Numbered from the stretch's first letter, positions 4,196-46,640 are shown. The stretch is 64,000 nt of DNA from an uncultured archaeon (GCA_938034445.1 CALHLD010000026.1:562-64561), one strand, 5' to 3'. Translations and numbers: made by a program. Notes: generated by a model from the letters alone, not told the origin.

Positions 4196-4254
4196 ATCCG
4201 TCTTTACATTATAATGTATAATAAATTTTTTAAATTTAACAAAATTCAGTAATA

Positions 4255-4262
4255 TTTATATA
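4255..4262 (+). promoter_or_regulatory. TATA-like box (TTTATATA) about 32 nt upstream of the PadR start, consistent with a leaderless transcript
   Basis: Sequence taatatttatatagtttta lies upstream of the ATG at 4294. The spacing fits an archaeal BRE/TATA at about -26 from the transcription start. Confidence 0.4.
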
Positions 4263-4277
4263 GTTTTATATCGGGGT

Positions 4278-4293
4278 CGATATCGATATTGAT
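4278..4293. promoter_or_regulatory. palindromic candidate operator (GTCGATATCGATATTGATAT; core ATATCGATAT / TCGATATCGA) abutting the PadR start codon
   Basis: Perfect 10-nt palindromes seen directly between the TATA-like box and the ATG at 4294. PadR regulators typically autoregulate through inverted repeats. Confidence 0.4.
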
Positions 4294-4845: not shown

Positions 4846-5844
4846 ATGCATCTTGTAGAGGTTAAAGGTTTAACAAAAATTTTTAACGGCACTATAAAGG
4901 CTGTGGACAATGTTAGCTTTGAAGTTGATGAAGGTGAAATCTTTGGTCTCCTTGGTCCAAATGGTGCCGGTAAGACTACGATAATAAATATGCTGACTAC
5001 TGTACTGAAACCTACCTCTGGAACAGCATTAATAGGTGGATATGATATTGTAAAGCAGTCTAAAGAAGTTAGACAGTTGATCGGCGTTGTGCCCCAAGAG
5101 TATACTGCTGACGAGGATTTGACAGGCTACGAGAACGCGCTATTGTGTGCAGACCTATACGGTATTACAAGAAGTTTATCAAAACAGAGGATAAATGAGC
5201 TTTTTAAGCTAGTGGAGCTTGAAAATGCTGCACACAGGCTTGTAGAAACATATTCTGGTGGAATGAGAAGAAGACTTGAACTTGTTTGTGGTCTAGTGAG
5301 TAGACCTAAGCTACTTTTTTTGGATGAGCCCACTTTAGGTCTTGATGTCCAAACCAGGGCCGCAATATGGAATTATATACGGAGATTAAAGGACGAATAT
5401 AATATGACCATATTTCTGACAACACATTATATGGAAGAAGCTGACTCACTATGCGATAGGATAGCAATAATAGACCATGGTCATGTACTAAAAATAGGTT
5501 CTCCTATCGAATTAAAAAATAGTATTGGAGGCGATATTATAGAAATTGAAGTGAAAGAGGATGCGGATGATTTGTCAAAAATTTTGTTAGATATAAAGCA
5601 TGTTAAAAATGTAAAAAGGAACAATTCAACCTACATCGTTAGAGCAGAGTTAGGCGAGGAAGTTGCACCCGAGATTATTGAGGCAATTAGGGCTAAAGGT
5701 TTACATATTTCAAAGATATCTCTAACAAAACCTACACTAGATGAAGTATACTTAGAGTATACTGGTCGAAAGCTTAGAGATGCGCAAGCAAACTGGGAAG
5801 AGATTGCCTCAATAAGAAGAACGATAAAGAGGGCTAGATCCTGA
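4846..5844 (+). CDS. ABC transporter ATP-binding protein (DrrA/ABC-2 type)
   Basis: 332 aa. Walker A GPNGAGKTT. Signature YSGGMRRRLEL. Walker B LLFLDEPTLGLD. Confidence 0.9.
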   Translation: MHLVEVKGLTKIFNGTIKAVDNVSFEVDEGEIFGLLGPNGAGKTTIINMLTTVLKPTSGTALIGGYDIVKQSKEVRQLIGVVPQEYTADEDLTGYENALLCADLYGITRSLSKQRINELFKLVELENAAHRLVETYSGGMRRRLELVCGLVSRPKLLFLDEPTLGLDVQTRAAIWNYIRRLKDEYNMTIFLTTHYMEEADSLCDRIAIIDHGHVLKIGSPIELKNSIGGDIIEIEVKEDADDLSKILLDIKHVKNVKRNNSTYIVRAELGEEVAPEIIEAIRAKGLHISKISLTKPTLDEVYLEYTGRKLRDAQANWEEIASIRRTIKRARS

Positions 5845-6743
5845 TGAGCGCACAGACTAATCTCACAGATAACAGAAATTTGGAGGTTAATGTGAGTCCC
5901 CTACATGGTCTTTGGGCTTTAACAAATAGGGAGTTGAAAAAATGGTACAAGAAACCATTTATCCTTACAATGTCCTTAGTCCAGCCTTTTATTTGGCTCG
6001 CGCTCTTCGGCAGAGCAATGAACATTAACGCAATATTCACGAGTGGATCATTCAATATACCTGGCCTAAATATTCCTAAAGAGATAATAAATCAGATATC
6101 AAAGCAGATTATGGAGTCCACATTCGGAACATCAGACTATTTCTCATTTCTTGCTGTTGGAATGCTTTCTTTTATAGCCTTGTTTACTGCAATGTTTAGT
6201 GGAATGTCAATTGTATGGGATAGACGTTTAGGTTTCCTTGGTAAGGTTCTTAGTACACCAATATCTAGGGGTATAATTCCTTTAAGTAAGGTTCTAAGTG
6301 CTGTAGTCCGTGCAATTGTTCAGGCATCAATTGTTTTAATAATAGCTGTCTTCCTAGGCTTAGACACGTCACATATTACATTGTTTAATGTTCTAGGCGC
6401 ATTTTCTGCACTTTTCCTAATGGTATTAGGTTTTTCATCTCTTTTTGTTATGCTCGCAATACGTTCTACAAGCTGGGAAACGCAGCAAGCTATAGTAAAT
6501 CTTCTTAATATGCCATTAATTTTTGCAAGCAATATAATTTTTCCAGCAAAATATATGCCAGAGTGGCTTCAGCCAATTGTTTACATAAATCCTATCAGCT
6601 ACGCAACAGACATTTCTAGACAACTACTACTAGGTTCGCCTGGAATGGCAAGTTTAGCCTTTGACTTCCTATATTTGGGCTCATTCGCTTTAACTATAAC
6701 TATAGTAGGTATTATATTGTCTTGGCACTATTTAAGCAAATAA
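5844..6743 (+). CDS. ABC-2 family transporter permease
   Basis: 299 aa. Start overlaps the stop of the ATPase gene. Six predicted TM segments, ABC-2 type layout. Confidence 0.8.
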   Translation: MSAQTNLTDNRNLEVNVSPLHGLWALTNRELKKWYKKPFILTMSLVQPFIWLALFGRAMNINAIFTSGSFNIPGLNIPKEIINQISKQIMESTFGTSDYFSFLAVGMLSFIALFTAMFSGMSIVWDRRLGFLGKVLSTPISRGIIPLSKVLSAVVRAIVQASIVLIIAVFLGLDTSHITLFNVLGAFSALFLMVLGFSSLFVMLAIRSTSWETQQAIVNLLNMPLIFASNIIFPAKYMPEWLQPIVYINPISYATDISRQLLLGSPGMASLAFDFLYLGSFALTITIVGIILSWHYLSK

Positions 6744-6758
6744 TAAAATTCATAATTT

Positions 6759-7046
6759 TTACTCTAAAATTTTCATCCAAGATTTAATATAATAAATTTC
6801 CCTAACAAGCTTATAAAGTGCATCTTGTAAAGCATATCTCATAAAATTGGTTATCTCATTATCTTTTTTAATGATTTTAAAAAGTTTGGTTTCTAAACCT
6901 TCTCCTATATTTAACAGAATCTTTGCTGTCCAAATTTGCTGTGGTAATGTTGTTTCCGTATCGACATCTTGTTTAAATGTTTTTCTTTCACCTACGCTAG
7001 AAAATCTTTCTGTAATAGTATGCAATTTACTAAAGTTAATAGCCAA
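6759..7046 (-). CDS. hypothetical protein (95 aa)
   Basis: ORF only. Lies downstream of, and co-directional with, the two secreted-protein genes. A same-size antisense ORF overlaps it, so the coding status is uncertain. Confidence 0.3.
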   Translation of the reverse strand: MAINFSKLHTITERFSSVGERKTFKQDVDTETTLPQQIWTAKILLNIGEGLETKLFKIIKKDNEITNFMRYALQDALYKLVREIYYIKSWMKILE

Positions 7047-7292
7047 TATTAGATCGCCTAAAAGGCCTAATTTTCCTCTAACATAGGTGTTCGTGGATTT
7101 AAATCCTCCTCCACCTTAGCACCTCTACTTCTAGTACAGTTTCCATATTCGCTGATTTCTGTATCTTTTCCTACCTATTTCGACTGCAATCCCCAGCTGA
7201 GCAGTATTCATACCAAAGTAGGTACAAGTCCATCAATTCAGCTCTTTCCAGTCTTTTGGATGACTCTTGTATTTCTACCTATTTCTCCTCAG

Positions 7293-8090
7293 CTATGGAT
7301 CTGGAGGAAAATATTCATTATCGCCAGTGTAAGTTGTGCTCCAAAGACATGTGCCTGCGGAGTAGTGTGTTCCCCCATTGAATCCTATTTTGACAACGTT
7401 AGGTCTATATACGTAGATTAGCATCGACGAGGGAGATGACTGGTCGTACACGTAAGTTGAACCGGAATTTCTCCTCCCTGTTGATAGCACTTGGGCCCAC
7501 AACGCTATCTGGTCAACATAGATATTGCCAAAGCCAGTTGTTTGGCCTGATTCAGCTATTCCTCCAACGTTGCCTGAAAGCCTACCGTAGGCTACGGAGT
7601 GAACTTTTACATAAATGGCAACTCCAGTTGAACTCTTTGTAAACATGAATGTTATACAGCCCAAAGACGGATAGACGGCTATACTAAAATAAATAGGATC
7701 AGAGGCACTCCATCCTGCTGGAGGTAGCACACCATTACCTTGATAGCCTATTCCAGGCTTGTAGTACGTCCAGAACATAGCCCATGAATGCGGAGGAATT
7801 AAAGTCTTTCCACCACTTATTGAAAGGTAGACATCAAGGCCATTGTATATGTACCCATTTTGTACGAACACACCGTCAGTTGTGGTAGAAGACATCCAGA
7901 AGAAAAATACGGCTTGATTTGGTGAAGTTGACCAACGCATACCTTGAGTGGGCATCTCTATGGAATCATATTGAGATGTCGTTGGTTGCATTGAGGTACC
8001 ATATTGCCACGCTTTCACAGACGATAGAGAAAGCAACAAAAGCGATATCGTAGTGAGCAGCAATATTGAAAGAAGCTTATTGCTTAACAT
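7293..8090 (-). CDS. secreted hypothetical protein (signal peptide; beta-rich, Ser/Thr/Gly/Tyr-rich, lectin/glucanase-like composition)
   Basis: 265 aa. N-terminal LLSILLLTTISLLLLSLSSVKA signal-like segment. G+C visibly higher than the neighbouring genes. Confidence 0.5.
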   Translation of the reverse strand: MLSNKLLSILLLTTISLLLLSLSSVKAWQYGTSMQPTTSQYDSIEMPTQGMRWSTSPNQAVFFFWMSSTTTDGVFVQNGYIYNGLDVYLSISGGKTLIPPHSWAMFWTYYKPGIGYQGNGVLPPAGWSASDPIYFSIAVYPSLGCITFMFTKSSTGVAIYVKVHSVAYGRLSGNVGGIAESGQTTGFGNIYVDQIALWAQVLSTGRRNSGSTYVYDQSSPSSMLIYVYRPNVVKIGFNGGTHYSAGTCLWSTTYTGDNEYFPPDP

Positions 8091-8098
8091 ATTTACCT

Positions 8099-8674
8099 CT
8101 ATTTTACCTCTATTGTTCCTCTTACAGCCAGTTCCTTATCTTCCACTTCGAACATTATGGTGAATGAGTATAATCCTGGGCTGACTTCCACATTACCAGC
8201 CGTGGGACTCCTTTTCGCCTCCCATTCAAGATAGAAAACATAGTCTTGGGGCGGATTCTCTCCAGTGGCCAGGGTTCTGTGAGGCAGCCAAATACACACG
8301 TCGTAAACCTTTTCTTCATTGGAGTTTGCTACAGTAAATCTTGCTAGACTAACATTCCAAGCTTTTGGTCCTGTAAGGTTAATTCTCATCCGTAGTGTTT
8401 CCCCAGTTTTCACGCTTGAACTTGAAAGAAAGACATTTACTCCCAAGCTCTCTAAGCTACTTGTGAATCTTGGACCGTTGAATTCTGCTGGAGCGACAGT
8501 GATAGTTCGGTTTTCCCCGTTAATTGTTTTGTTTCCGCTAATAGTCATAGTTCCAGTGCTTATGGTTACATGAGTATCTTGAGAGTTAAACCCTTTAAAA
8601 CTCAGCGTGATGCCAACACCTGTAACTAAGAGTACAACAAGAAAACACAAGACAATATGCGTTCTGCCGAACAT
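8099..8674 (-). CDS. secreted/membrane-anchored hypothetical protein
   Basis: 191 aa. N-terminal hydrophobic segment IVLCFLVVLLVTGVGITL followed by several N-x-T/S sequons. Same G+C-elevated patch. Confidence 0.5.
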   Translation of the reverse strand: MFGRTHIVLCFLVVLLVTGVGITLSFKGFNSQDTHVTISTGTMTISGNKTINGENRTITVAPAEFNGPRFTSSLESLGVNVFLSSSSVKTGETLRMRINLTGPKAWNVSLARFTVANSNEEKVYDVCIWLPHRTLATGENPPQDYVFYLEWEAKRSPTAGNVEVSPGLYSFTIMFEVEDKELAVRGTIEVK

Positions 8675-9189
8675 AACACTTACTCTCCAAGGACAGCATA
8701 AGATGAATCAGCTTATAAGTTTTCGAACAATTTTTATTAAAATAAATGTTCCCGATAGTGATTTTCTAGAAAAAGATAAGGAAGTTCAGAGTTAGATAAA
8801 CGATTCTTGCAGACGTTGTTTGTTCGAACCATTATTGAGCGAAAACCAGCCATTTCGTAAGTACAAGCAAAAAGTTAAATGATTGGCAGGAGGCGCATGT
8901 TTGAGATTATCAAGAAAGAATTTGCCGGAAAATTCATGCGAAATCCACATAGCACAGTCGCACACACGCATAAGCGTTTGATGGCCCAAAAGAGATTTGA
9001 ACTTCCATTTCCTTCTGTCGATGTTTTAAGCAGCCGTTTCTAACTTAGGGCTTAAAACAGGATTTTAATCTACGCAGCCTACTACGGTTATTTTTGTTTA
9101 TGGAAGAGCACAAGATTCTAGGACGTTGTGCAGACATAGTTGAATCCATCTTCGACAAGTTAGTATGCTTCTTCAACATTTTTCCAATT

Positions 9190-9762
9190 TCAATATTGTG
9201 GTCTTAAAAACATTTTGTCAGTAGGCTTATATTGATACGGTTGCCCAAATACTTCACTATAAGCTAAGTTATTTACTCCCCTCCTTGGTGTTATCATGGG
9301 CTCCTCATCTGGATATCCTACTGGAATTATTGCTACAGGTTTCAGTTCCCTCACATCTACACACTTACTCACTTCTTCATCATTAAATGCTCCAACCCAA
9401 ACACTACCAAGTCCTAAAGCTGTTGCTGCAAGTTGCAAATATGAGGCTGCAATCGTAGCATCTTGTAGACAATAAAGGTCTATACCACGTTTACCGTATC
9501 TTCTTGCAGACCTTTTTGGGTTGCTTAAAAATACAAATACGACGGGCGCTTCTGTAATAAACTCTTGGCCTAATGCGGCTTCAGATAATCTTCTCTTTCT
9601 ATCCTCATCCTTTACTACAATAATCTCGTAAGCTTGTAGGTCTCCTGCTGAAGGTGCAAGATTCGCAACCTCTAAGAGCCTGTTTATCTTCCATTCTTCA
9701 ACAGGATCTTTTTTAAACGCTCTAACTGAACGTCTCCTAATAATGGTTTCAAAAAACTCCAT
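9190..9762 (-). CDS. nitroreductase-family protein
   Basis: 190 aa. IIRRRSVRAFKKDPV...LAPSAGDLQAYEIIVVKD is a classic nitroreductase N-terminus. Confidence 0.8.
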   Translation of the reverse strand: MEFFETIIRRRSVRAFKKDPVEEWKINRLLEVANLAPSAGDLQAYEIIVVKDEDRKRRLSEAALGQEFITEAPVVFVFLSNPKRSARRYGKRGIDLYCLQDATIAASYLQLAATALGLGSVWVGAFNDEEVSKCVDVRELKPVAIIPVGYPDEEPMITPRRGVNNLAYSEVFGQPYQYKPTDKMFLRPQY

Positions 9763-9839
9763 ATAAAAACCATTCTTCTAAATAATATAAAAATATTTTT
9801 AAACACAATATCTTTAAATTTTTTAGAGTTTGAGCTCAA

Positions 9840-11096
9840 ATGGTTGATGCAAGAATTTTTAATGATAAATTGGATTTTCTTGAAAACAAAATTTTTGATG
9901 GAAAACTTGTAGTGCCAGATTATAGCAATCTTTGCATAGTTAATCTGCATTCGATTATAGAAAAATTTTTTGGAATAAAAAGCTTATCGCCTTCGAAAAT
10001 GTATATCGAAAATTTTCCAGATTTCACTAACATTAATAAGATTGTCCTCTTTATTATTGATGGTCTAGGATACAGTTTTCTGGAGAACCATTTAAGTAAG
10101 ACAAGCATACTTCTTCCAAATGTTAAAGATCATTATCTTACACCAATAACATCAACATTTCCGTCTACTACATCAACAGCTTTAACAAGCCTTTTTACAG
10201 CCCAAACTCCAGTTGAACATGGTATTGTAGGGTACACAATGTATCTAAAATCTTTAGGCCTAATAATAGATATGCTAAATTTTACACCAGTCTATGGTTG
10301 GATGTCAAATGAAAATATAGTGCAAGAGTTGGGTGCAAATAAAAGCTTATGGACTACAAAACTTATGGAAGAAGGAATAAATGTGCGCATATTAACAAGA
10401 TTCACTACAGCTGAAAGTGGGCTATCTAAGATAATTTATCAAGGACAAAAGATAATAACCTACGTACTTGCCACAGACCTAATCGTTAATTTAAAAAAGT
10501 TGCTCGAATCTACAAATAATCTAATGCTTATTGTCTACTATCCTGGATACGATACCCTTTCACATTTATACGGTCCTTTTTCTGAAGAAGCAGAAACTGA
10601 TCTCACTTTTTTCGAAAGCCTGATTAAAACATTTTTAATTGAAAAACTTGATAAAAAAGTAAAAGATGAAACATTATTTATATTAACTTCTGATCATGGG
10701 CAGTCTCATACAGAGAATGTGATGTTCATAAAAGATATGCCTAGAATATTTGAACATCTCATAATACCGCCGGCAGGTGATAGTAGAGCAGTCTTCCTTT
10801 TTATTAAACAGAATAAAGTTGATAAATTAAAAGGGTTACTCCAGGAGGAGTTGATTGATTTTAAAATACTGGATTCTAATGAGATGTTAAATAAAGGTTT
10901 TTTTGGGGCGCCAAAAACGGATAAAGAAAAAATTACATTAGATGAAAGGATAGGTGACTTGACTCTAGTAGCCACTGGTCAAAGTTCGATACTTTATCCA
11001 TACTCTGAAAAAGATAGGGAACGAAGTAAAAAGGGTTCTCATGGCGGATTAAGTTTAGATGAAATGCTCGTCCCACTATTCGCCTTTAAACTATAG
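9840..11096 (+). CDS. alkaline-phosphatase-superfamily metalloenzyme (type I phosphodiesterase / nucleotide pyrophosphatase family)
   Basis: 418 aa. IIDGLGYSF. TSTFPSTTSTALTSLFTAQTPVEHGIVGY, holding the catalytic Thr/Ser. TSDHGQS. Confidence 0.7.
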   Translation: MVDARIFNDKLDFLENKIFDGKLVVPDYSNLCIVNLHSIIEKFFGIKSLSPSKMYIENFPDFTNINKIVLFIIDGLGYSFLENHLSKTSILLPNVKDHYLTPITSTFPSTTSTALTSLFTAQTPVEHGIVGYTMYLKSLGLIIDMLNFTPVYGWMSNENIVQELGANKSLWTTKLMEEGINVRILTRFTTAESGLSKIIYQGQKIITYVLATDLIVNLKKLLESTNNLMLIVYYPGYDTLSHLYGPFSEEAETDLTFFESLIKTFLIEKLDKKVKDETLFILTSDHGQSHTENVMFIKDMPRIFEHLIIPPAGDSRAVFLFIKQNKVDKLKGLLQEELIDFKILDSNEMLNKGFFGAPKTDKEKITLDERIGDLTLVATGQSSILYPYSEKDRERSKKGSHGGLSLDEMLVPLFAFKL

Positions 11097-11158
11097 TATC
11101 CTTACAAATCCATTTCACAAAAACTTATCTTTTCCAAAATTTAATCCACAAAAATAAT

Positions 11159-11596
11159 ATGATACATGTTAGAAAATATAGTGAAAGAGATTTAGAACAA
11201 ATTTTGAAGATAGAACGGTCCTCGTTCAAATTCCCGTACCCAATGAGTCTGTTTAAAGAACTTTTATCAAATAGGCATACTAGAATGTTTGTTGCTGAAA
11301 CTGTTTCTGACAAAATTGTTGGATACATACTTTATTCGATAAAGTCACCAAAGTGTTTACTCATTTCAGTAGCTGTAGACCCAGAATATAGACGTATGGG
11401 TGTAGGCACTATGTTAATGAAAGCCTTTCTAGATGATATAAAAGATGTTGTTGAAGTAGTTGAATTGCAGGTTAGCTGCAATAACTTTGAAGCGATAAAG
11501 TTTTATTATAAGTTTGGTTTCAAGGTTACTGGTATACTAAAGGGATATTATCCTGACGGGGAAGACGCTTTTCTTATGGTTAAATCTTTAAATTAA
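11159..11596 (+). CDS. GNAT N-acetyltransferase (RimI-like)
   Basis: 145 aa. AVDPEYRRMGVGTMLM acetyl-CoA-binding motif. Confidence 0.8.
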   Translation: MIHVRKYSERDLEQILKIERSSFKFPYPMSLFKELLSNRHTRMFVAETVSDKIVGYILYSIKSPKCLLISVAVDPEYRRMGVGTMLMKAFLDDIKDVVEVVELQVSCNNFEAIKFYYKFGFKVTGILKGYYPDGEDAFLMVKSLN

Positions 11597-12541
11597 TTTT
11601 TGAATTATAAAATCAACCTTTTCCTTAACCATATTATATAATCTTTCACTAAACATTCCTTTTGTAAAAGCTTCCTCAAATTTTTCTTCATCAACAATCT
11701 TTATTGAACCATCAGGGTATACGCATATGTCTATTTCAAGGTCAACATACCTTATGCCGTTTGAAACAAGTTCGACACCTGTTCCAATGTTCACATATTT
11801 TCCCTTAAGCTTTCCATCTCTCGAAAGATACTTTGTAACAATATACATTTCTCCTATCCTAGTAAAGGATTCTGCAATATCATTCTCTTCCTTTTGAACT
11901 TCAAGTCCATCATAGTATCCATCACTTTTGATAAATCTAGAATATTCTAATTTATCATCTAGAAATTTTTTTACGGTAGCTGTTCCAAGCTCATAAACTC
12001 TACCATCCAATTTATGATGTAAAATTCTAATTCTATCACCTTCTTGAGGCAAATGTTTTACTATAACTGCATAAAAGAGTTGTTTCACACTCTCATATGG
12101 TTGTCCTATTTCCAATAATTTTTCAGCCTGCGCAACATACGAAGCAATCTCATTGTTCCATGTTTTGAAAAGATGGTGGTCATCGATTGTTGGGGTGATT
12201 GTGTTTCTTATCCTATCCAATTTCCTTTTCGAATATAATGGGATTATTATGTCCACTATACCGTTAACCAAGCTTTGAGGTGTAAGATGCCTGAAGATAG
12301 GGTCGTCCAAATTTTCTCTAAAAACTCTTACAACATCCTTTATGGCCTCATTTTTTCCTATAACTATCACACCATTTCTATCCAATCTGTCTCTGACTTC
12401 AACATCGAAGCTTTCTTCGTTAGGTTCAATGTTAAATCTATTTATGATTTCAATAGAAGGTTGTGCAATTTTAAAGCCGTTTTCTATGAAAAGTTTAGTT
12501 AATGCTGTAGAATATATTCCCCTAACCTTCACTTTGACCAT
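11588..12541 (-). CDS. FAU-1 / RNase E-like RNA-binding protein (DUF402 family)
   Basis: 317 aa. The N-terminus MVKVKVRGIYSTALTKLFIENGFKIAQ matches the remembered FAU-1 N-terminus (VRIRGIYATALTK). It is shorter than Pyrococcus FAU-1. Confidence 0.5.
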   Translation of the reverse strand: MVKVKVRGIYSTALTKLFIENGFKIAQPSIEIINRFNIEPNEESFDVEVRDRLDRNGVIVIGKNEAIKDVVRVFRENLDDPIFRHLTPQSLVNGIVDIIIPLYSKRKLDRIRNTITPTIDDHHLFKTWNNEIASYVAQAEKLLEIGQPYESVKQLFYAVIVKHLPQEGDRIRILHHKLDGRVYELGTATVKKFLDDKLEYSRFIKSDGYYDGLEVQKEENDIAESFTRIGEMYIVTKYLSRDGKLKGKYVNIGTGVELVSNGIRYVDLEIDICVYPDGSIKIVDEEKFEEAFTKGMFSERLYNMVKEKVDFIIQKLI

Positions 12542-12547
12542 TAAAAA

Positions 12548-13582
12548 TTACACCTTCCTTATCATCCAATTTCCATTAAACTTTGAGACTGAAAACCTTG
12601 TTCCTAATATCTTTTCGCAAAGCCACATATTTGTTTCTAGATGGTCTGAAACTTCCCTAACTATGAACGAAGATTCTCCATTAGCTAGGGCCATGTATGG
12701 TATTAGCATATCAGCCATGTGAACATCAACTGTAACCTTTCTTTCTATTTCAGAAATAAGTTTTTCAGCTGCCTCTACACCCACACTTTCACTAGATTTA
12801 CCTATTTCTCCAATAGCATCAGAACCTAATATTACACCCCTATCACTCTCACACCACAAGACAATAGAACTTCCCTTCTGCATCGGGTTCGACTCGTCAT
12901 ATACGATATCGATTCTCGAATTAAGCCCTATTTTATTAAACTCTCTTGCAGCCGCTGAAGCTTGCCTCTCAGAAACTCTTCTATCTTTTAAAAATGTGCA
13001 TATTGAAATACCACGTACCTCCTTCATGTTTCCAAACTCTTCCAATACTATTGGAAAAAGTCTACTTACTGGATTTACAGAAAGTACTGCCTCCCCCATA
13101 CCAACCGGATAATATCCATATTTTATTACTTGGATATCTGCACTTACTCCCATTTTGTTTAAAACTTTTAGTAACACATTTTTTAGATAGTTTATTGTAG
13201 GCGATGCCCTAACATCTGTTCCACCCCTTTTTACTGTTAAATTCACTTTTTCTTTAGCGAATATACATATAGGTAAAACTGTCATAAAAAGCATTGGAAT
13301 ACTACCAGCTGTACCTATTTCACTTTCGAAATTTCCACCCCTTATTCTAGTAGGCTTAAACCAAAGCTCCTTTGAGCCTAAGTATGCACCCTTAACCTCA
13401 GCATCAACAAGCTTTGAAGCCGTCAGGACTGCCTCCAAATGTTGTGGCCTAAGACCTGGATTATCCCTCTTCTTCCTAATATTAAAAATATGTAGCTCTT
13501 CATTTAGTATCGAAGCTAAAGCTATAGAAAGTCTAAGTATTGTACCACTTCCACTCTTTTCTCCCCCATCTATCTCTATCAT
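12548..13582 (-). CDS. rtcA: RNA 3'-terminal phosphate cyclase
   Basis: 344 aa. MIEIDGGEKSGSGTILRLSIALASIL resembles the RtcA N-terminus (IDGS.GEGGGQILR.A.ALS). Size and domain order fit. Confidence 0.75.
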   Translation of the reverse strand: MIEIDGGEKSGSGTILRLSIALASILNEELHIFNIRKKRDNPGLRPQHLEAVLTASKLVDAEVKGAYLGSKELWFKPTRIRGGNFESEIGTAGSIPMLFMTVLPICIFAKEKVNLTVKRGGTDVRASPTINYLKNVLLKVLNKMGVSADIQVIKYGYYPVGMGEAVLSVNPVSRLFPIVLEEFGNMKEVRGISICTFLKDRRVSERQASAAAREFNKIGLNSRIDIVYDESNPMQKGSSIVLWCESDRGVILGSDAIGEIGKSSESVGVEAAEKLISEIERKVTVDVHMADMLIPYMALANGESSFIVREVSDHLETNMWLCEKILGTRFSVSKFNGNWMIRKV

Positions 13583-13658
13583 AGAATACGCTTATGAAAG
13601 TATAAATTATAATATAAATTTTTAAAAGGAAAAAAGAAAAAATAAAATTTAAACTTTC

Positions 13659-14876
13659 TTATTGGCTTACAGGTTTCTTGAGCAGCAGAATCACTATCAC
13701 TATTCCAATCGCCGCAAGTAGTGCTACCATATAAAATGATGAAAGATAGCTTCCTGTGATATCACGTATGATGCCAGAAGTTAATGCTCCTATAATTGCG
13801 CCAGTACCGTAGGCTGTAAATACGATACCATAATTTTTTCCATAAAATTTTGTTCCAAAAAATGATGCTGTTGCAGTAGGTGCGATGGCAAGCCATCCGC
13901 CTAGATTAAGCCAGAGAATACTGAAACCAATTAAGTAAAGTGCAACATTTCCATCTCCAAAGAAAGCTAGTGCTAAAGATGCTGTAATAATCATAGTATA
14001 AGAAAGTAGTGCCGCATATTTTGGTGTTATTCTATCAGTAAGCCATCCAAATAATGGCCTTCCAAAGCCATTAAAGACTGCAAAGATTGAGACCGCTAAG
14101 CCAGAGGTTATTGGATCAACTCGAGCAACTTCTCTACCAAAGGGTGCGGAAATACCTATCGCCATTAATCCAGCCGTTGTTCCTATAGTGTAGGTTAACC
14201 AAAGTGCATAGAAGCATTTTGTTTTAAGCATCTGATAAGGTGTATAATTGGATTGAGTGCTTATACTTTGGATGCTACCCTGACTTTTTAGGCTAATATC
14301 TTCTGGAGGAAATTTTAGTGGCAGTGAAAGCAAGAATAGTGTTAATAGGAAAAAGGTTCCAAGATATCCGAAGGTTGTAAGTGGACCCAGCATTAAAATT
14401 AAGTACGTCATTAAAGGCGCCATAACAAGTGCTGAAAGGCCGAAACCTAAAACTGTTAAACCTATAGCCAGCCCCCTCTTGTCCGGAAACCATTTTGCAG
14501 AAACACTAATAGGCACACCATAAGTGATCCCTACACCGATTCCTCCCAAAAGACCATACAATAATGTTAGAACATATATGTTTGGAGAAAAGCTTGCAAG
14601 TATCCATCCAGCTCCAACCAATAAGCTTCCTAATATTGAAGTCTTCTTTGCTCCAATCTTTTCTAAAATTATACCGCCAAAAGGCATAGTGTAACCAAAT
14701 GTTGCAAGAAAAACCAGATACGGTAGCCCACTTTCTGTTACAGAAATGTTCCAAAAACTTTCTAAAGGCTTTCTAAAAACACTAAAAGCGTAGATGGCGC
14801 CAAGAATTAAATGTATAACTGCACCAACAATCACATAAATCCATCTCCTATTATAAGAGCTAGTATGTGATGTCAT
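13659..14876 (-). CDS. MFS transporter (oxalate/formate antiporter-like)
   Basis: 405 aa. 12 predicted TM segments, MFS layout. Confidence 0.8.
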   Translation of the reverse strand: MTSHTSSYNRRWIYVIVGAVIHLILGAIYAFSVFRKPLESFWNISVTESGLPYLVFLATFGYTMPFGGIILEKIGAKKTSILGSLLVGAGWILASFSPNIYVLTLLYGLLGGIGVGITYGVPISVSAKWFPDKRGLAIGLTVLGFGLSALVMAPLMTYLILMLGPLTTFGYLGTFFLLTLFLLSLPLKFPPEDISLKSQGSIQSISTQSNYTPYQMLKTKCFYALWLTYTIGTTAGLMAIGISAPFGREVARVDPITSGLAVSIFAVFNGFGRPLFGWLTDRITPKYAALLSYTMIITASLALAFFGDGNVALYLIGFSILWLNLGGWLAIAPTATASFFGTKFYGKNYGIVFTAYGTGAIIGALTSGIIRDITGSYLSSFYMVALLAAIGIVIVILLLKKPVSQ

Positions 14877-14967
14877 ATTTGGTCCTACTTGCTAGCAAAG
14901 AAGACAATTTATATTCTTTTCTTTAAAAATGGTAAAAATTTTTAAAATAGTATAGAATTCAATAAGT

Positions 14968-15444
14968 GTGCGAAGACTATATAATGATAAAGATCTTCAG
15001 GAATACATTAAATTAAATAAACTTGAAGCTGAAATCCTATATTTTAAGGAGCATACTATGACTGTTGAATCAGCAGCAGAAAAATTAAAAGTGCCTAAAG
15101 AATATATTATAAAAAGTATTTTGGTCTTAAATGAAAGAAGTGAACCCTTTCTAATAATATTAAATGGTGATAGAAAAGTATCGTTTCAAAAGGTTATGAA
15201 AATTACTAATTCAGAAAACATCAGGTTAGCTAAAGCGAAAGAAGTTAAGGAAATTCTAGGATATGAGATAGGGAGTGTGCCGCCAATTTTTCATAAAAAT
15301 AGTGTAAAAGTGTTTATTGACGAACGTGTCCTTAAATACGATTACGTTATTGGTGGTGGAGGTTCAACTCACTCTCTCCTTAAAATTAGGCCAAAGGATG
15401 TCCTTAATCTAACGAAAGCGCTAGTTTATGATATTAGTGAATAA
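14968..15444 (+). CDS. YbaK/ProX-family aminoacyl-tRNA deacylase domain protein
   Basis: 158 aa. The conserved lysine context and the GSVPPIFH region fit the YbaK editing domain. Its last 8 codons form direct repeat copy A. Confidence 0.7.
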   Translation: MRRLYNDKDLQEYIKLNKLEAEILYFKEHTMTVESAAEKLKVPKEYIIKSILVLNERSEPFLIILNGDRKVSFQKVMKITNSENIRLAKAKEVKEILGYEIGSVPPIFHKNSVKVFIDERVLKYDYVIGGGGSTHSLLKIRPKDVLNLTKALVYDISE

Positions 15445-15449
15445 AAAAT
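15420..15449. repeat. direct repeat copy A (GCTAGTTTATGATATTAGTGAATAAAAAAT), equal to the 3' end and stop codon of the ybaK-like gene
   Basis: Matches 18523-18552 at 27 of 29 positions, with extended weaker similarity upstream. Both copies read in frame as xLVYDI(S/G)E-stop. Confidence 0.65.
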
Positions 15450-15972
15450 TTAATGCTTTATTGCTTAATTTAGTTTCCGATTGGCTGTTAATAAAAGATA
15501 CATCAAGAAAGAAATAGAACAGTGAAGCTATTGCAACCAAAGTACAATTATCAGATTTGTATTAATTTCATCTACAATGATGTTTAGAGAAAGTTTGAAC
15601 TGTTTATTTAAATGAGGCTGCAGCAATGCTTGTTGGAATAGCAGCTAGGGCCAAGAGCGGTCATTTTAACCGCTAGGGAGAAGGATGGAAAAAAGAGGTT
15701 AAGGCTTAACTGTGGCATGCTTATAAGCGAACATATTAACACTTCCGGAAGGTCTGGTTGGTCAGTGTTTAGTATATGCGAGCCATAGTAAAAGTCAAGA
15801 ACCTCTATGTGCGATGGCTAAGTGACTAAGCTCAAATTGGCTAGTCAAAGCCCAGAGTTTGATTAGAACTAGGGTTCTACAAATAAAAATTGGGCATTTT
15901 TAGAGAAAGTGGTGTTTGAAGTAACTGTATGGCGAATGAGATACATTTATATAACGCCGTTATATAATTATA

Positions 15973-16395
15973 TTGGGTGATGAAATGCCAAAAATATCCA
16001 TAATTGTGGCTTCAGAAAAACTGGATAAGCTATTTCCGGCGGCAACACTGGCCACAACAGCAGCCGTTATGGGCTGGGAATCAGAGATGTTCTTTACATT
16101 CTGGGGTCTCTTAGCCCTAAAAAAGGGTTATGAGCCAAAGGAAGTTAGCTCAGATTACAAAAGCTATGAAGATGATTTAAGGAGAGCAATCAGCTCAGGA
16201 GCTATGCCAAGCTGGCTAGAAATATTGGAGCAGGGGAAGAAGACTGGAAAATTGAAGATTTACGCTTGTTCCACAACGATGAATTTTCTTGGTGTGAAGA
16301 CTGAAGACCTAGTAGCATATGTTGATGAGGTTGTTGGTGCCGCGTCCTTTTTAAGTAAAGCGAAAGATTCAGATATTAATCTCTTCATATCATAA
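15973..16395 (+). CDS. DsrE/DsrF-like sulfur-relay family protein
   Basis: 140 aa, probable true start MPKISII. KISIIVASEKLDKLFPAATLATTAAVMGWESEMFFTFWGL and a C-terminal Cys (IYACSTTM) fit the DsrE fold. Confidence 0.65.
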   Translation: MGDEMPKISIIVASEKLDKLFPAATLATTAAVMGWESEMFFTFWGLLALKKGYEPKEVSSDYKSYEDDLRRAISSGAMPSWLEILEQGKKTGKLKIYACSTTMNFLGVKTEDLVAYVDEVVGAASFLSKAKDSDINLFIS

Positions 16396-16400
16396 TATAG

Positions 16401-16640
16401 GTGGTAACTTTGGAAGCTAATATAGTTGTTGATGCGCGAAATAAGTCTTGCCCAGGCCCACTTTTGGCATTAACTAAAGCAGTTATGAAGGCCAGTCCAG
16501 GTCAGATAATTATGCTCCTGTCAACCGATCCAGGTGCCCCTCAAGATATTAGGGAATGGGCCTCACATGCGGGTCATAAGGTTCTGAATGTTGAAAAGAT
16601 GGGTGAAACATATCGGATATACTTAGAGGTTTTGGGTTGA
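16401..16640 (+). CDS. tusA: TusA-like sulfur-carrier protein (CPxP motif)
   Basis: 79 aa. DARNKSCPGPLLALTKAV is the TusA active-site CPxP. Lies 5 nt after the DsrE-like gene. Confidence 0.8.
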   Translation: MVTLEANIVVDARNKSCPGPLLALTKAVMKASPGQIIMLLSTDPGAPQDIREWASHAGHKVLNVEKMGETYRIYLEVLG

Positions 16641-16965
16641 CCTATAGTGACCTATCAGAACCGGCATACTGGTTAACACCGTGTGTCCCGGATAGGCCCT
16701 GACAAGAGGATTAAGAATCCGGTCAGGTTAACCTCGGATAAAACGGGTGAACGATTGAGGAAATCATAAGCAAATGTTGAGCACTTTTTAATCTAATAGA
16801 CGATAATGTAGCCATACGCTGACTCCCTTCATAATGCTTCTATAAGCTCGGTATATAGCGCCTTGGTCACTAAGTCTATGAAAAAATTAAAGCTTCAAAA
16901 CTAAACGATATAATCAAATCTTTTCAATTATGAAAATCATTAAATATAATCATTTCAATTTTAAG

Positions 16966-17400
16966 TCAAATTTTAAGTTCTGTTAAAGTACGTTTTATCT
17001 CGTTCACAACAAATTTAGCGTTATCAATTATTTCTTTGGCTTTTTCTCGAGTATAATATTCCATTGGAGTCAACCATTTGCCTCCAACTTTTAGAGGATA
17101 ACGTGCATACACCACCTCCCTTTGGATCATGCCTCCCTTCTCAATCAATTGAATGTATCTTTCTTCCCTAAGCAGCTCTGGTTTCACTCTTCTGATAACC
17201 GCTGCTAAGCCGCTTATCGCTCTATGATTTTTTGCCTCATTTCCTCCAAGTTTTATGATTAAGGCGTTTGCTATACTTTCAACAGCTAAAGAAGCATGAA
17301 AAACGGCAGAATCATATTCTCCGGTTTTAAAACGTTTTTCCGCCCTAGCCAAATTCACTTCAGAAACCCTAATTAAAACATCTATTTTGTTTTCAACCAT
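16966..17400 (-). CDS. HEPN-domain protein (toxin partner of the minimal nucleotidyltransferase)
   Basis: 144 aa, all-helical. Overlaps the upstream MNT gene by 19 nt, the classic HEPN/MNT pair arrangement. Confidence 0.65.
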   Translation of the reverse strand: MVENKIDVLIRVSEVNLARAEKRFKTGEYDSAVFHASLAVESIANALIIKLGGNEAKNHRAISGLAAVIRRVKPELLREERYIQLIEKGGMIQREVVYARYPLKVGGKWLTPMEYYTREKAKEIIDNAKFVVNEIKRTLTELKI

Positions 17401-18014
17401 ATTCTTGTCTCACTTAAATATTCATGGCTGCATCTAATCTCTTCCACCCTACTATGCAGTATTCTGGCTAGCTTGCCCGTCTTATCAACTAAAACTTCAA
17501 AGCCTTCTGCGATACCATATATAATGCCGCCTTCACTTGAATAAACATTATCGAGGAAATCTTCTTCTGTCAAAATTAATGGTTCAATCATAATGTGATA
17601 TTCTCTTTCAAGCTCTAAAATTTTGGGCATAATCTTCGCCTTAGCCTTTTCGAGTGGTTTATCGACAACGATAATCATGTCCAAATCACTAAGCTCATTA
17701 GCCCTTTTCTGAGTTACACTACCAAAAAGAACGATGGTCTTAACAATAGGCAGTTTTGAAAGTTTATCGGACATTCGTTTAGCTTGGAAGCGCATATATA
17801 AACTTAATTCATAAGTGGAAACATCTAACTTGTGGGCTAAACTATACCATTTACCATCCTTTTTAATAACTCCTTTACTTTCTAATTCTCTAAGCTTAAA
17901 AGTCAACCATCTATCACTTAATCCAGTCTCAGTCTTCAATTCTTTGTAAGTATGTCTTCCATGATTCAAGACCAGGAACACTTTTCCTTCAGGAGTTAAA
18001 GAGACTATTTCCAT
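17382..18014 (-). CDS. minimal nucleotidyltransferase (Pol-beta fold) with N-terminal wHTH; antitoxin partner of HEPN
   Basis: 210 aa. VLFGSVTQKRANELSDLDMIIVV carries the GS...D.D nucleotidyltransferase motif. The N-terminal 60 aa are wHTH-like. Confidence 0.75.
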   Translation of the reverse strand: MEIVSLTPEGKVFLVLNHGRHTYKELKTETGLSDRWLTFKLRELESKGVIKKDGKWYSLAHKLDVSTYELSLYMRFQAKRMSDKLSKLPIVKTIVLFGSVTQKRANELSDLDMIIVVDKPLEKAKAKIMPKILELEREYHIMIEPLILTEEDFLDNVYSSEGGIIYGIAEGFEVLVDKTGKLARILHSRVEEIRCSHEYLSETRIWLKTK

Positions 18015-18522
18015 CGTTATTCACCAATTAAATATAATACACCAAATAATAAATACTTTACTAAGTAAAGTTAGACTGAATCTTGACCGAGATTCAACTA
18101 AACCTTGAAATTATAACTTCATGGTTATTAAAAAAATTAAATGAGCAAATCTTATCTGATTTCAGGTTTCTATAAGATCGGCCCAAAAGGACTTTTGCAT
18201 TCTGTTAAGAAGTATGGTGGTTTAAATGTTGACATTCTCCTCGGCTTAAGTCGGGAGATTCTCGGTTCTTTGTCCTTAGGGGTTCATCATACCGAGTTCG
18301 GGCTGTGTCAAATCAGCCCATAGCATGAGCGTATAACCTGTGCCCCGCTCGCCCGAACCACCTCCCCCACTTCAGCCTGAAGCCTTATTCGGGCTCTTGG
18401 ACACCCAGACTACATTCGAGCGACACGCTCAAAATATGAGCAGAAAATTCTATATTTAAATTTATCGACAGTTCATTCCAGAGCTAAAGCTCTAGGCTTT
18501 CTTGTTGAATTTTTGTAAAGGA

Positions 18523-18552
18523 GCTAGTTTATGATATAGGTGAATAAAAAAA
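18523..18552. repeat. direct repeat copy B (GCTAGTTTATGATATAGGTGAATAAAAAAA), an orphan copy of the ybaK-like 3' end
   Basis: See copy A. Sits 3.1 kb downstream with no ybaK body attached. Confidence 0.65.
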
Positions 18553-18566
18553 TAAAATTGGGGGGC

Positions 18567-20327
18567 CTATTTTCGTTTCCTAAGTAATAGTCCCACTATA
18601 GCTACGGCAACAACTACTATAGCTAAAGCCAAAATTGTTGGAGTATAATCTGGCTGAGTAGGTTGTGTTGTTGTCACCGTAGTTATGACTGTTGTAGTTG
18701 GTACTGTAGTCGTGACGACTGTAGTGGTTGTTGGAGGCGGTGAAGTTATAGTTTCTTCATAAATGTATGTATTAACTAGAGCGTCCCAGAACACGTATCT
18801 TCCAACAGGAATGTCGGTGCCCTTTATGTTTCTCGACTTCACGTTCAAGAAAACTACATTGTACAATGGTATTTCTGGAAGTTCACTTGTCAATATCTCC
18901 TCAAGTTTCTGTAGAAGCTCTGTTTGTTTTGTTGGGGAAGGTTCTCTCATCCATGAATCAAGTAATTGGTCGACTTGTGGATTACGGTATAGCATTGTGT
19001 TAGAAAATGCTACACCCGGCTGTATCCATGATGAATGGAAGAGCTGGTATGACCACATTGGTTCAACCCAACGTTTTACTAGAACAAAATCGTACTGATA
19101 TTTTGTCTCCAAGTCTAACATTGTTCCAAAGTCCACTCTCTTTAACACAACTTCTATTCCAACTTTGGAAAGTTGGTCTTTGATTAGGTCTGCTACAGCT
19201 GCCTCTTCAGCTTCACCTGTTCTTGTTAATAATTCTATTTTGAATCTTTTACCATCTGCACCTTTAGTGTATCCTGCCTTGTCGAGAAGTTCGTTTGCCT
19301 TTTCAAGGCTGTAATCGTATTTTGCAAGATTCGGAGATTCTGGAATAGTTGCTGGGAGTATCCGGTATGTTGGTGTACATAATCCTAATGTTGCCTTTTG
19401 AACTATATCTTTTCTATCTAACGCGTAGGATATGGCTCTTCTCACATCAGGATTGCCTAATATGGTGTGGTTTGTGTTAATCTGTAGTGTCATCTTGTAA
19501 GGTGGTCTCTGGTGCGCTATCACTTCAAGATTCGGGTTTGTGCCAAGTTTTGCTGCTGCCTCATACGGTAAACCTCTGAACACATAGTTTACTTCTCCTG
19601 TTTCGAGTGCTGAAACCATTGTCATTGGATCAGTTATAAATCTGATGATCAGCTTTTCAAGGTATGGTTTACCTTTGTCCCAATAGTTGGGGTTTCTTTC
19701 TAAAAGTATGTGGCTTCCCTTTACCCATTCCTTAAATACAAACGGCCCTGTACCAATAGGCTTCGTTCTGAACTCGCTTTTTTCGAAATCTTGTCCTTCT
19801 AGTATATGTTTTGGAACTATTGCTGTATCAACTGAAGCTAATAGAGTTAACTGTACGGCTGGAAGTAGCTGTTCGACTTTTAATTTGACGGCTGTCTCAT
19901 TTAATATTTCCACTTTAGCGTTCTTAAAGTATGCTGCACCGAATATATCGTACTTTGAGATTATTTTTTCGAAAGAGAATTTCACATCCTCTGGTCCAAA
20001 GGGTTTTCCATCATGCCATGTAACCCCCTTACGTAAGTTGAAGACATACGCGTTTTCGTTTTCTAAAATTTTCCACGATTCTGCAAGGCTTGGTATAATT
20101 TTTAGGTTTGTATCTGTATTTAATAGTGAGTCAAATATTTGTGCAGCCACAAAGGATGCATGCCATGCTCCGGTTGTTGGGTCAATGACCTTTGGTTCCG
20201 CGACCAGTCCGATAACAATTTGTCCTCCAACCTTAGGCTTTGTTAGTGCTTGTGAAGCTATTGATGTAATTAGTATCAGTAGTAGGGTTGCTAAAGCTAT
20301 TTTCCAATATTGTTTTTTCCTTTGCAT
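18567..20327 (-). CDS. ABC transporter substrate-binding protein, family 5 (peptide/opine/nickel), with C-terminal Thr-rich linker and TM anchor
   Basis: 586 aa. SBP_bac_5 architecture. C-terminal TSPPPTTTTVVTTTVPTTTVITTVTTTQPT then hydrophobic ILALAIVVVAVAIVGLLL and RKRK. Confidence 0.85.
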   Translation of the reverse strand: MQRKKQYWKIALATLLLILITSIASQALTKPKVGGQIVIGLVAEPKVIDPTTGAWHASFVAAQIFDSLLNTDTNLKIIPSLAESWKILENENAYVFNLRKGVTWHDGKPFGPEDVKFSFEKIISKYDIFGAAYFKNAKVEILNETAVKLKVEQLLPAVQLTLLASVDTAIVPKHILEGQDFEKSEFRTKPIGTGPFVFKEWVKGSHILLERNPNYWDKGKPYLEKLIIRFITDPMTMVSALETGEVNYVFRGLPYEAAAKLGTNPNLEVIAHQRPPYKMTLQINTNHTILGNPDVRRAISYALDRKDIVQKATLGLCTPTYRILPATIPESPNLAKYDYSLEKANELLDKAGYTKGADGKRFKIELLTRTGEAEEAAVADLIKDQLSKVGIEVVLKRVDFGTMLDLETKYQYDFVLVKRWVEPMWSYQLFHSSWIQPGVAFSNTMLYRNPQVDQLLDSWMREPSPTKQTELLQKLEEILTSELPEIPLYNVVFLNVKSRNIKGTDIPVGRYVFWDALVNTYIYEETITSPPPTTTTVVTTTVPTTTVITTVTTTQPTQPDYTPTILALAIVVVAVAIVGLLLRKRK

Positions 20328-20446
20328 CTTCGAAACTGAAGGAGCTACATTATTTAAACTTTACTATAACTTCAATGTGATAAATCAAATTTGGAATAAA
20401 ATCTCTTACAAAATATAATATATTGAAAAATATTTTATTAAAAATT

Positions 20447-37775: not shown

Positions 37776-37791
37776 AAGGCTGGTGATCTTA

Positions 37792-46555: not shown

Positions 46556-46640
46556 TAAAGGTATAAGAGTTCTTGTAACAGGTGCAAGTGATAGAATTGG
46601 ACATGCCTTTGTTAGAGATACAAAATCTCCTCTATTATAG
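46556..46640 (+). pseudogene. diverged duplicate of the 5' end of the epimerase gene at 47092 (IRVLVTGASDRIGHAFVRDTK vs MRVLVTGAGGRIGRAFVREYK), ending in a stop
   Basis: Nucleotide alignment by eye: 17 identical nt (AGAGTTCTTGTAACAGG), then about 75% identity over the next 50 nt. Confidence 0.55.

Follow-up and report, generated by a model that had tools for sequence, protein, structure and literature searches.

A repeat-bounded insert lies behind ybaK

The locus described here lies in a 64,000-nt stretch of DNA from an uncultured archaeon (GCA_938034445.1 CALHLD010000026.1:562-64561), which is referred to as the window and from whose first letter all positions are counted. Two convergent genes, a ybaK-like aminoacyl-tRNA editing gene of 158 aa (14968-15444, plus strand; Pfam tRNA_edit, E = 1.6e-30) and a gene for a family-5 solute-binding protein (SBP; 18567-20327, minus strand; Pfam SBP_bac_5, E = 4.6e-90), are separated by an insert of 3,064 nt that is bounded by a direct repeat of the ybaK 3' end. 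The left, attL-like repeat copy (15415-15453, plus strand) forms the functional end of ybaK, the target gene, whose last 9-10 codons and stop fall within it. The right, attR-like copy (18518-18556, plus strand) is a displaced, non-coding ybaK tail and keeps the T-rich stretch downstream of the convergent SBP gene. Between the repeats, three noncoding segments (A, C and E) alternate with two foreign chromosomal fragments (B and D), which carry a dsrE-tusA pair and a putative HEPN/MNT toxin-antitoxin pair, respectively.

The repeat, reported in the initial annotation as a match of 27 of 29 positions, is real. In its 30-nt core (15420-15449 and 18523-18552) the copies differ at 3 of 30 positions (90% identity), and ungapped extension lengthens the match to 39 nt at 85% (15415-15453 versus 18518-18556). 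Exact runs inside the repeat are only 15 and 12 nt long. No further match to the 30-mer with three or fewer mismatches was detected elsewhere in the 64-kb window, a second match was obtained in none of 100 dinucleotide-preserving shuffles, and the pair was found by self-BLAST of the window with E = 1.6e-4.

At the protein level, the ybaK tail in copy 1 reads ...K A L V Y D I S E stop and copy 2 reads K E L V Y D I G E stop. As had been noted from the codons, both copies keep the phase and the stop, and within the core they differ by one synonymous change (ATT>ATA) and one Ser-to-Gly change (AGT>GGT, S157G); an Ala-to-Glu change (GCG>GAG, A151E) lies just upstream of the 30-mer. Both A151E and S157G hit residues that are invariant in YbaK orthologues (57-92% identity), which share the same ...DISE/DVSE ending. 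Since an in-frame TGA is located four codons before copy 2 (18506-18508), this copy is not part of an open reading frame (ORF). Nor is it the tail of a decayed tandem ybaK paralog, because YbaK-like sequence was not found upstream of ~18512 at either the DNA or the protein level; tblastn of YbaK against the window returned the last 11 residues only (E = 15).

Related loci carry the empty site

YbaK relatives were taken from genomes, metagenomes and an exact-protein look-up. Twelve related loci (L003, L004, L005, L006, L025, L026, L032-L036 and L038; ~70-85% nucleotide identity, covering at least three levels of divergence) harbor an empty site, in which a single repeat copy is present and ybaK directly precedes the SBP gene. 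In L003 and L004, both from the metagenome-assembled genome (MAG) SKW303, and in L025 and L026 (~83-86%), window positions 12003-15448 and 18526 onward map adjacent to each other with an overlap of 26-34 nt, which represents one repeat copy without insert. L005/L006, L032-L035 and L038 (~74-81%) as well as L036 (~70%) are also empty. In the alignment of these sites (A1), the sequence flanking copy 1 on the left and that flanking copy 2 on the right are contiguous in all of them, copy 1 matches the left and middle part of the target, and copy 2 matches its right part. At the left border, the match to the empty sites takes in the flank and most of the repeat and ends at ~15449; at the right border, the flank of copy 2 runs on into native sequence. 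In the two nearest empty sites, L025 and L026, the ybaK stop and the SBP stop are 18-20 nt apart.

The alignment to close relatives that the initial annotation had proposed thus yielded what it predicted for an insertion, namely ybaK followed directly by the sequence after 18552. The opposite outcome it had named, relatives carrying the same 3.1 kb and a second copy derived from a decayed ybaK paralog, was contradicted on both counts, as these relatives lack the 3.1 kb and ybaK homology does not extend upstream of the second copy. Occupied sites were encountered only in the population of the window and in its closest relative, L024 (94% in the flanks). The 3.1 kb is therefore a genuine lineage-specific, repeat-bounded insertion.

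Independent contigs support the outer borders. Logan contig L001 (run ERR9287632) spans window positions 4968-16041 at 99.9% identity, with 15445-16041 identical, and L002 from the same run spans 18290-20415 at 100%. Both outer junctions are covered in this way; the internal junctions B/C, C/D and D/E lie outside L001 and L002.

As a side observation, the two SKW303 contigs (JAOAKB01 contigs 12 and 27, corresponding to L003 and L004) each carry the ybaK-SBP junction with a protein 85-86% identical to that of the window, which suggests a strain mixture or a duplicated region in the bin.

The insert is a patchwork of truncated chromosomal fragments

The cargo listed in the initial annotation, a DsrE/TusA pair, a HEPN/MNT pair and three G+C-rich noncoding blocks, was recovered by Pfam and by the GC profile. 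Pfam assigned the insert ORFs to DrsE_2/DsrE, TusA, HEPN and NTP_transf_2 with an HxlR-like winged helix-turn-helix (wHTH), and the G+C-rich blocks stand at 0.42-0.45 (15600-15870), 0.48-0.51 (16600-16750) and 0.53-0.59 (18250-18450) against 0.354 for the window.

Segment B (15876-16663, plus strand) is 90.9% identical to L028 and 90.5% identical to L041 and comprises a promoter region, dsrE, tusA and the start of iscS. The promoter region of 107 nt contains a conserved palindrome at 15941-15973. It is followed by a dsrE2-like gene (ATG at 15985, to 16395, plus strand) and by tusA with a CPGP motif (16401-16640, plus strand), and the segment is cut 25-45 nt into iscS. In L028 and L041 the dsrE-tusA pair heads a dsrE-tusA-iscS-iscU operon, in which Aminotran_5 (IscS) and NifU_N come next; repeats flanking dsrE-tusA were not found at these home loci. 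The GC content at third codon positions of the inserted dsrE (0.40) resembles that of the donor-like genes (0.40-0.43), compared with 0.22-0.32 in the genes flanking the insert in the window and 0.26 in dsrE of L029/L030. Ratios of dN to dS were 0.09-0.11 for dsrE and 0.32-0.38 for tusA. The palindrome (ATACATTTATATAACG / CGTTATATAATTATAT) is near-perfect, lies just upstream of dsrE and is conserved almost without change in L028 and L041; a role as the imported promoter or operator of dsrE-tusA is probable.

Segment D (16887-18227, minus strand) is 81% identical to L031 and 79% identical to L040. It encodes a HEPN protein (16966-17400, minus strand; Pfam HEPN, E = 8e-15) and a wHTH-MNT nucleotidyltransferase (17382-18014, minus strand; NTP_transf_2, E = 3.3e-8; Polbeta, E = 2e-7; HxlR), which are co-oriented with MNT first and overlap by 19 nt (17382-17400). 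Of the catalytic motifs of such pairs (GSx(n)DxD in MNT, Rx4-6H in HEPN), an FGS...DLD motif is present by eye in MNT and a clear Rx4-6H motif is not seen in HEPN. The segment also retains the divergent intergenic region between MNT and hmgR and, beyond it, the first 29 codons of hmgR, encoding HMG-CoA reductase (18141-18227, plus strand; tblastn, 58.6% over 29 aa, E = 6e-5). The synteny between hmgR and MNT-HEPN is kept in four genomes (L031, L040, L042 and L044).

Both fragments thus stop inside the neighbour gene of their home locus, at +25-45 nt of iscS and at codon 29 of hmgR. The donor-like loci differ from the window in composition: L028 and L041 have a GC content of 0.42-0.43 and a tetranucleotide correlation of 0.82-0.85 with the window, L031 and L040 have the same GC content (0.42-0.43) and r = 0.75, whereas true relatives lie at 0.34-0.38 and 0.985-0.99. 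B and D are truncated chromosomal fragments from other, G+C-richer Bathyarchaeia. The earlier description of the insert as a decayed or integrase-less island therefore holds as far as an integrase-less, repeat-bounded insert is concerned; its cargo, by contrast, is a patchwork of chromosome pieces and not an element backbone.

The donor-like lineage probably shares a community with the window organism, because L041 comes from ENA assembly ERZ6864471, and L029, from that assembly, matches at 99.9% identity L030 from ERR9287632, the run to which L001 and L002 belong. L029 (8001-10401) and L030 themselves contain an AT-rich dsrE-tusA-iscS-iscU operon, the dsrE of which has 82% nucleotide identity to the inserted copy. 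This operon may be the native one of the organism behind the window, or that of a relative, in which case dsrE-tusA in the insert would represent a xenologous second copy.

The noncoding segments have no recognisable homologues

Segments A (15454-15875; GC 0.38), C (16664-16886; GC 0.42; the second G+C-rich block of the initial annotation) and E (18228-18517; GC 0.47 overall, the most G+C-rich and hairpin-rich of the segments) are noncoding. Homologues of A, C or E were not found in the fetched loci, plasmids or phages, nor by Rfam at threshold, Pfam or PHROGs. When Rfam was run with relaxed E-value limits over the region as a whole and over the blocks one by one, it returned, apart from the HgcC match described below, only chance C/D-box matches; ARAGORN detected no tRNA in or near the insert, and the matches of two exact patterns from E in viral contigs were no more than chance 16-17-mers.

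Folding of E gave a z-score of -3.8 for 18200-18450 (plus strand), which fell to -1.7 for the core alone, and homologues for covariation are lacking, so that a structured RNA in E was set aside as a candidate. Z-scores for C (-0.3 and -1.6) were not significant. Segment A contains an imperfect palindrome of ~115 nt (15694-15806; arms of ~55 nt), which folds better than shuffles on both strands (z-scores -2.3 on the plus and -2.9 on the minus strand). A sub-threshold match to HgcC (RF00062) was observed at 18216-18321 on the minus strand (E = 5e-4 on 381 nt); at 25.4 bits it stays below the gathering score of 50, and two helices of the model are missing or unpaired. The matched stretch shares with HgcC a 5' hairpin and a 3' single-stranded GAGGAG..GUCA..UUUAAA stretch; it could be a fragment of an uncharacterised archaeal noncoding RNA carried in with the foreign DNA. 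Overall, A, C and E look more like foreign or decayed DNA than like functional elements.

Search for recombinase, mobile-element and viral signals

No integrase or integrase fragment was found in the insert when Pfam was applied to all ORFs and to every stop-free stretch of at least 36 aa in A, C and E, and PHROGs gave no match for the four insert ORFs and three stop-free stretches. The absence of an integrase between the repeats, stated in the initial annotation, was thereby upheld; the decayed or SSV-type split integrase fragments that it had suggested might lie in 15450-18520 did not turn up. An SSV-type element is excluded because the repeat lies in the host gene ybaK, and the DNA adjoining both repeats contains neither an ORF nor a family match. 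The insert of L024 likewise contained no integrase, and recombinases were absent from the window ORFs of at least 180 aa scanned with Pfam and from those marked with Pfam on the loci of relatives. At the ybaK-tail site itself, an integrase-bearing element was not present in any of ~14 related loci. For an integron, there was no integrase among the scanned window ORFs and no shared attC-like repeat among the reported repeats of the region, which were not subjected to a dedicated attC search.

The insert had no blastn match among 72,556 plasmids and 50,697 phages. Under an integrative reading, the attP would contain ...GAGCTAGTTTATGATATAGGTGAATAAAAAATTTAATGC... / ...GGAGCTAGTTTATGATATAGGTGAATAAAAAATTTAATGC..., and the att pattern was not matched in viral contigs; MNT gave a single weak N-terminal match there (33%). 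The only mobility gene among the scanned window ORFs is an IS605-type TnpB, 18 kb away. This gene (36076-37257; OrfB_IS605 with a Cas12f-like TNB domain) is followed by a VapB/VapC pair (37533-37775 and 37741-38139), and TnpA was not recognised among the ORFs neighbouring it.

A sister lineage carries a different insert at the same site

In L024 (Logan SRR8369165), a different insert of 1.58 kb occupies the same ybaK-tail site (L024:6650-8228). The repeat is longer on both sides than that of the window, amounting to ~55 nt, and the displaced ybaK tail is degenerate: it reads ...TAATCTAGCAAAAGAATTAGTTTATAATAT, followed by an 8-nt deletion and then AAAAAAATAAAATGGGGGG. The two inserts share segment D only, which is inverted in L024 and 77-87% identical. 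There, MNT is frameshifted and the hmgR fragment is cut at codon 11. Common ancestry of the parts outside the toxin-antitoxin segment was rejected, as in neither orientation did local alignments score above those of shuffled sequence. The dS of HEPN between the two lineages is 0.33 versus 0.16-0.25 in the flanking genes, a gap that is within sampling error for 144 codons and is compatible both with one ancestral insertion followed by turnover and with two insertions. The displaced copies of the window and of L024 share an A where all ybaK tails have a C, which fits either a common origin or a common attP. A motif of the form AAAAAATT(T)AA(T/A)GCT, noticed by eye at the attL junction, at the C/D junction and in L024, was set aside as too AT-rich and too short.

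Gene-end duplications occur next to other toxin-antitoxin genes

The fetched loci, 534 kb in all, were compared with themselves for local direct repeats. Those of Bathyarchaeia type and the window yielded adjacent paralogous genes and four repeat pairs at three loci, namely the ybaK-tail pair, one pair in L031 and two pairs at the epimerase/vapBC locus of the window. In L031 (GCA_052744155.1, Bathycorpusculaceae), the 5' part of hmgR is duplicated over 169 nt at 75% identity (59 codons, starting exactly at the ATG); the two copies (4119-4287 and 5492-5657) are 1,373 nt apart and bracket MNT-HEPN, with the distal copy 31 nt beyond HEPN. Segment D of the window is essentially one such L031-type MNT-HEPN/hmgR unit. 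At the second window locus, a 57-nt copy of the epimerase 5' end (81%; 46562-46618 versus 47106-47162) lies 544 nt upstream of the gene, and a copy of a vapC fragment (73 nt, 75%; 46833-46904) is situated between the two epimerase copies. A PIN (VapC) gene (45861-46256) and its 76-aa partner (46243-46473), an intact vapBC pair, adjoin the epimerase pseudo-copy. Direct repeats were also obtained from the DPANN loci L009 and L021-L023; the L009 pair consists of two tRNA-Leu genes and the others have no bearing on the present question.

A second indel in the window was noticed at ~6745-9190, where ~2.1-2.4 kb are absent from L004, L033 and L035 (~4.9 kb in L005). It contains two ORFs on the minus strand (7293-8090 and 8099-8674) without Pfam or PHROG match, and a direct repeat bounding it was not found.

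Discussion

How the insert arose can be weighed against several alternatives, two of which question whether there was an insertion at all. If the 3.1 kb were ancestral and had been deleted in the relatives between the direct repeats, a single repeat copy would also be left behind, and the empty-site sequence alone gives no polarity. All lineages at ~70-85% identity are empty, though, so that many independent precise deletions would be required; B and D are donor-like in composition and closer to foreign genomes than the flanks are to true relatives, and the repeats themselves would still need an origin. Because of this distribution of occupied and empty sites together with the composition data, insertion in the lineage of the window and L024 is far more likely than repeated deletion elsewhere, and an ancestral insert is very improbable. 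An assembly chimera or a chance repeat is more remote still. The sequence does come from a metagenome assembly, the Logan contigs have their ends within the insert (at 16041 and 18290), and the three internal junctions lie beyond their cover; yet both outer junctions were reproduced in an independent assembly of the reads, exact runs of 15 and 12 nt are too short to join k-mer graphs, and a different sample, the one that yielded L024 (SRR8369165), has an insert with the same toxin-antitoxin unit at this site. Chance repetition is contradicted by the shuffles, none of which gave a second match.

The remaining alternatives invoke a site-specific recombinase. As the initial annotation proposed, the insert may be a decayed integrative element (an integrase-encoding plasmid, virus or ICE-like element), the attP of which mimicked the ybaK tail and whose integrase and backbone were deleted later; it would then resemble a cis-mobilizable element (CIME), possibly mobilisable in trans, and what is left of it would be junk, dsrE-tusA as a possibly useful pair and the addictive toxin-antitoxin genes. 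Such an origin is a serious possibility, even if we doubt it. The attL/attR geometry and the empty site are those expected, at 39-55 nt the repeat has a length usual for archaeal att sites, attB sites located within protein genes have precedents (PMC8371274), the displaced copies of the window and L024 share a derived base, a sister lineage has a different insert at the same site, and genes truncated at segment borders are what deletional decay would leave. On the other hand, neither insert contains an integrase, a fragment of one or a backbone gene, all 12 related loci are empty and none has an intact element, the att pattern was not matched in viral contigs and the insert is unmatched in the plasmid and phage collections. 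The identifiable cargo is, moreover, DNA from housekeeping loci (the iscS and hmgR neighbours), and one recombinase would not give duplications as different in length as the 57 and 169 nt seen elsewhere. The ybaK/SBP junction may also be a recombination hot spot, where cassettes are inserted, inverted and exchanged again and again by a recombinase encoded elsewhere (integron-like, or of low specificity like the pTN3 integrase). This would account for the fact that L024 has unrelated content and its toxin-antitoxin segment in inverse orientation, and that there the rest of the insert is unalignable even though the flanks are 94% identical; the higher dS of HEPN points the same way but is suggestive only. 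We consider it improbable, as no IntI-like or other recombinase was found among the scanned window ORFs and attC-like repeats were not seen by eye at the segment borders, where a systematic search was not made. The dS gap can also be explained otherwise, since it is within sampling error and the frameshifted MNT of L024 implies relaxed constraint.

We tentatively favour the reading that the ybaK insert is a non-autonomous, integrase-less islet that resembles "insertion with long target duplication" and most likely arose without a dedicated cis-encoded integrase. We lean to an integrase-free route because recombinase and backbone genes are missing from two inserts, the cargo consists of truncated pieces of housekeeping loci and the duplications elsewhere differ in length; our preference over a decayed site-specific element is small. 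The data establish the polarity of the insertion, the duplication at the target, the foreign origin and truncation of B and D and the lack of recombinase genes among the sequences scanned; how the DNA was inserted enzymatically, and that the toxin-antitoxin pair stabilises it, we infer. Foreign DNA went into the very short ybaK/SBP spacer, and the target was duplicated over ~39 nt, or over as much as ~55 nt if L024 is taken as a guide. As a result of the duplication, ybaK kept its last codons and stop, and the SBP gene its downstream T-rich stretch. The same product would be expected if a circular fragment with a piece of the ybaK tail had entered by one Campbell-type crossover. Since in empty sites the convergent genes are ~20 nt apart and the ybaK tail is at the same time the T-rich stretch of the SBP gene on the other strand, only an insertion that duplicates this segment would, judging from the sequence, leave both genes intact. 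Direct repeats would otherwise promote loss of the insert; the HEPN/MNT pair plausibly holds it in place, its loss being counter-selected, as would follow from the known addictive behaviour of toxin-antitoxin and restriction-modification (R-M) systems.

Several points weigh against an integrase-free origin. A repeat of 39-55 nt lies within the usual archaeal att range, and integration into a conserved gene 3' end with restoration of that end is classic integrase behaviour. The A shared by the displaced copies of the window and L024 could be an attP-derived character, and, as the two inserts have only segment D in common, different elements may have used this site on two occasions, in which case targeting would be site-specific. 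With 64 kb of the genome visible, an integrase acting in trans is possible. The activity of the toxin-antitoxin pair is assumed from family membership, L042 and L044 carry the pair at hmgR without a duplication, and the pattern across three loci is suggestive, as it rests on small numbers and on empty sites for the ybaK locus only. Of the site-specific integration remnant put forward in the initial annotation, the repeat-bounded insertion with empty sites stands; the geometry could equally result from long target duplication or from Campbell-type integration.

Whether the ybaK islet exemplifies a more general process is a further step, and one we consider unlikely at present. Toxin-antitoxin modules in these archaea would spread without a dedicated recombinase, in that chromosomal fragments, each with a toxin-antitoxin pair and part of the end of an adjacent gene, insert at gene termini by long target duplication or single crossover and are kept by addiction. 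Each move would leave a gene-end fossil, such as the hmgR 5' piece in the ybaK islet, the hmgR duplication of L031 and the epimerase duplication around a vapC remnant. If this were true, mobility of the kind described by Kobayashi for R-M systems would extend to archaeal toxin-antitoxin systems, and the mobility of toxin-antitoxin cassettes, noted long ago but unexplained, could be traced to a concrete mechanism. Because small islets bounded by repeats are common, a bare insertion after ybaK would not be surprising; less ordinary are the patchwork of truncated fragments, the toxin-antitoxin pair dragging along the first codons of hmgR and the two further gene-end duplications. A decayed integrase-mediated element at ybaK would amount to a routine genomic scar. 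If the islet arose independently of an integrase, it would illustrate the way in which addiction modules and small adaptive operons are passed between uncultured archaea and would be the first archaeal counterpart of insertion with long target duplication.

Comparison with known systems

Among known HEPN-MNT modules (PF05168 with PF01909), the pair in segment D is typical in its adjacent, overlapping genes with MNT first and in its full-length domain matches, and it is very widespread in thermophile and archaeal genomes (358 homologues at 60% identity or more, nearly all of ~210 aa). It is unusual in that MNT carries an N-terminal HxlR-like winged helix. Furthermore, the usual Bathyarchaeia pair is a stable neighbour of hmgR (in four genomes) and not obviously mobile.

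The concept of the CIME comes from the literature on streptococcal integrative and conjugative elements. With archaeal tyrosine-recombinase elements and their CIME-like remnants, the ybaK islet shares direct repeats in the range of 40-60 bp, a conserved gene end with the frame restored, empty sites in relatives and toxin-antitoxin cargo, which is common on such elements. It differs from them in lacking integrase, replication, conjugation and virion genes, and its target is a protein gene rather than a tRNA gene; protein genes are nonetheless known as targets of these elements, whose att sites are typically 40-60 bp long (PMC8371274).

Homology-facilitated illegitimate recombination of transformed DNA, said to have been described by de Vries and Wackernagel in 2002, and Campbell-type insertion have in common with the ybaK islet that foreign DNA is anchored by short homology and that the process does without a recombinase encoded by the element; a circle that recombines by one crossover leaves direct repeats corresponding to the stretch of homology. 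The incoming DNA must carry a fragment of the ybaK tail, the origin of which is unexplained. We know of no description of a natural case of this type in archaea.

HEPN toxins are RNases, and therefore the double-strand breakage by restriction enzymes that has been proposed for the R-M case cannot apply at the ybaK locus. In other respects the R-M case is the closest. Insertion with long target duplication, in which no integrase takes part, has been seen by genome comparison for bacterial R-M systems, with duplications of >30 bp that include 46-bp repeats overlapping gene 3' ends (Nobusato et al. 2000; PMC2853133). No archaeal case survived the screen of Furuta, Abe and Kobayashi 2010 (PMC2853133), and in a later review it is attributed to R-M systems alone (PMC3874152), the mode of insertion being the same. 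Here, the host is an archaeon, the insert is a mosaic of several fragments, and the repeats are less similar (85-90%) than in most R-M cases. In addition, the cargo consists of HEPN/MNT and sulfur-carrier genes without R-M homologues, and for this reason the ybaK islet is at most a variant of that mode. The likenesses are nevertheless extensive: the insert is <20 kb and has no mobility gene, the direct repeats are >30 bp and both align to one copy in a sister empty site (at 39 nt, the window repeat is close to the 30-bp threshold for such duplications; the copies of L024 have ~55 nt), the repeats overlap a gene 3' end, as at H. influenzae HI0105, the composition of the insert is unlike that of the host, repeat lengths vary between loci, and the cargo is an addictive module of the post-segregational-killing type.

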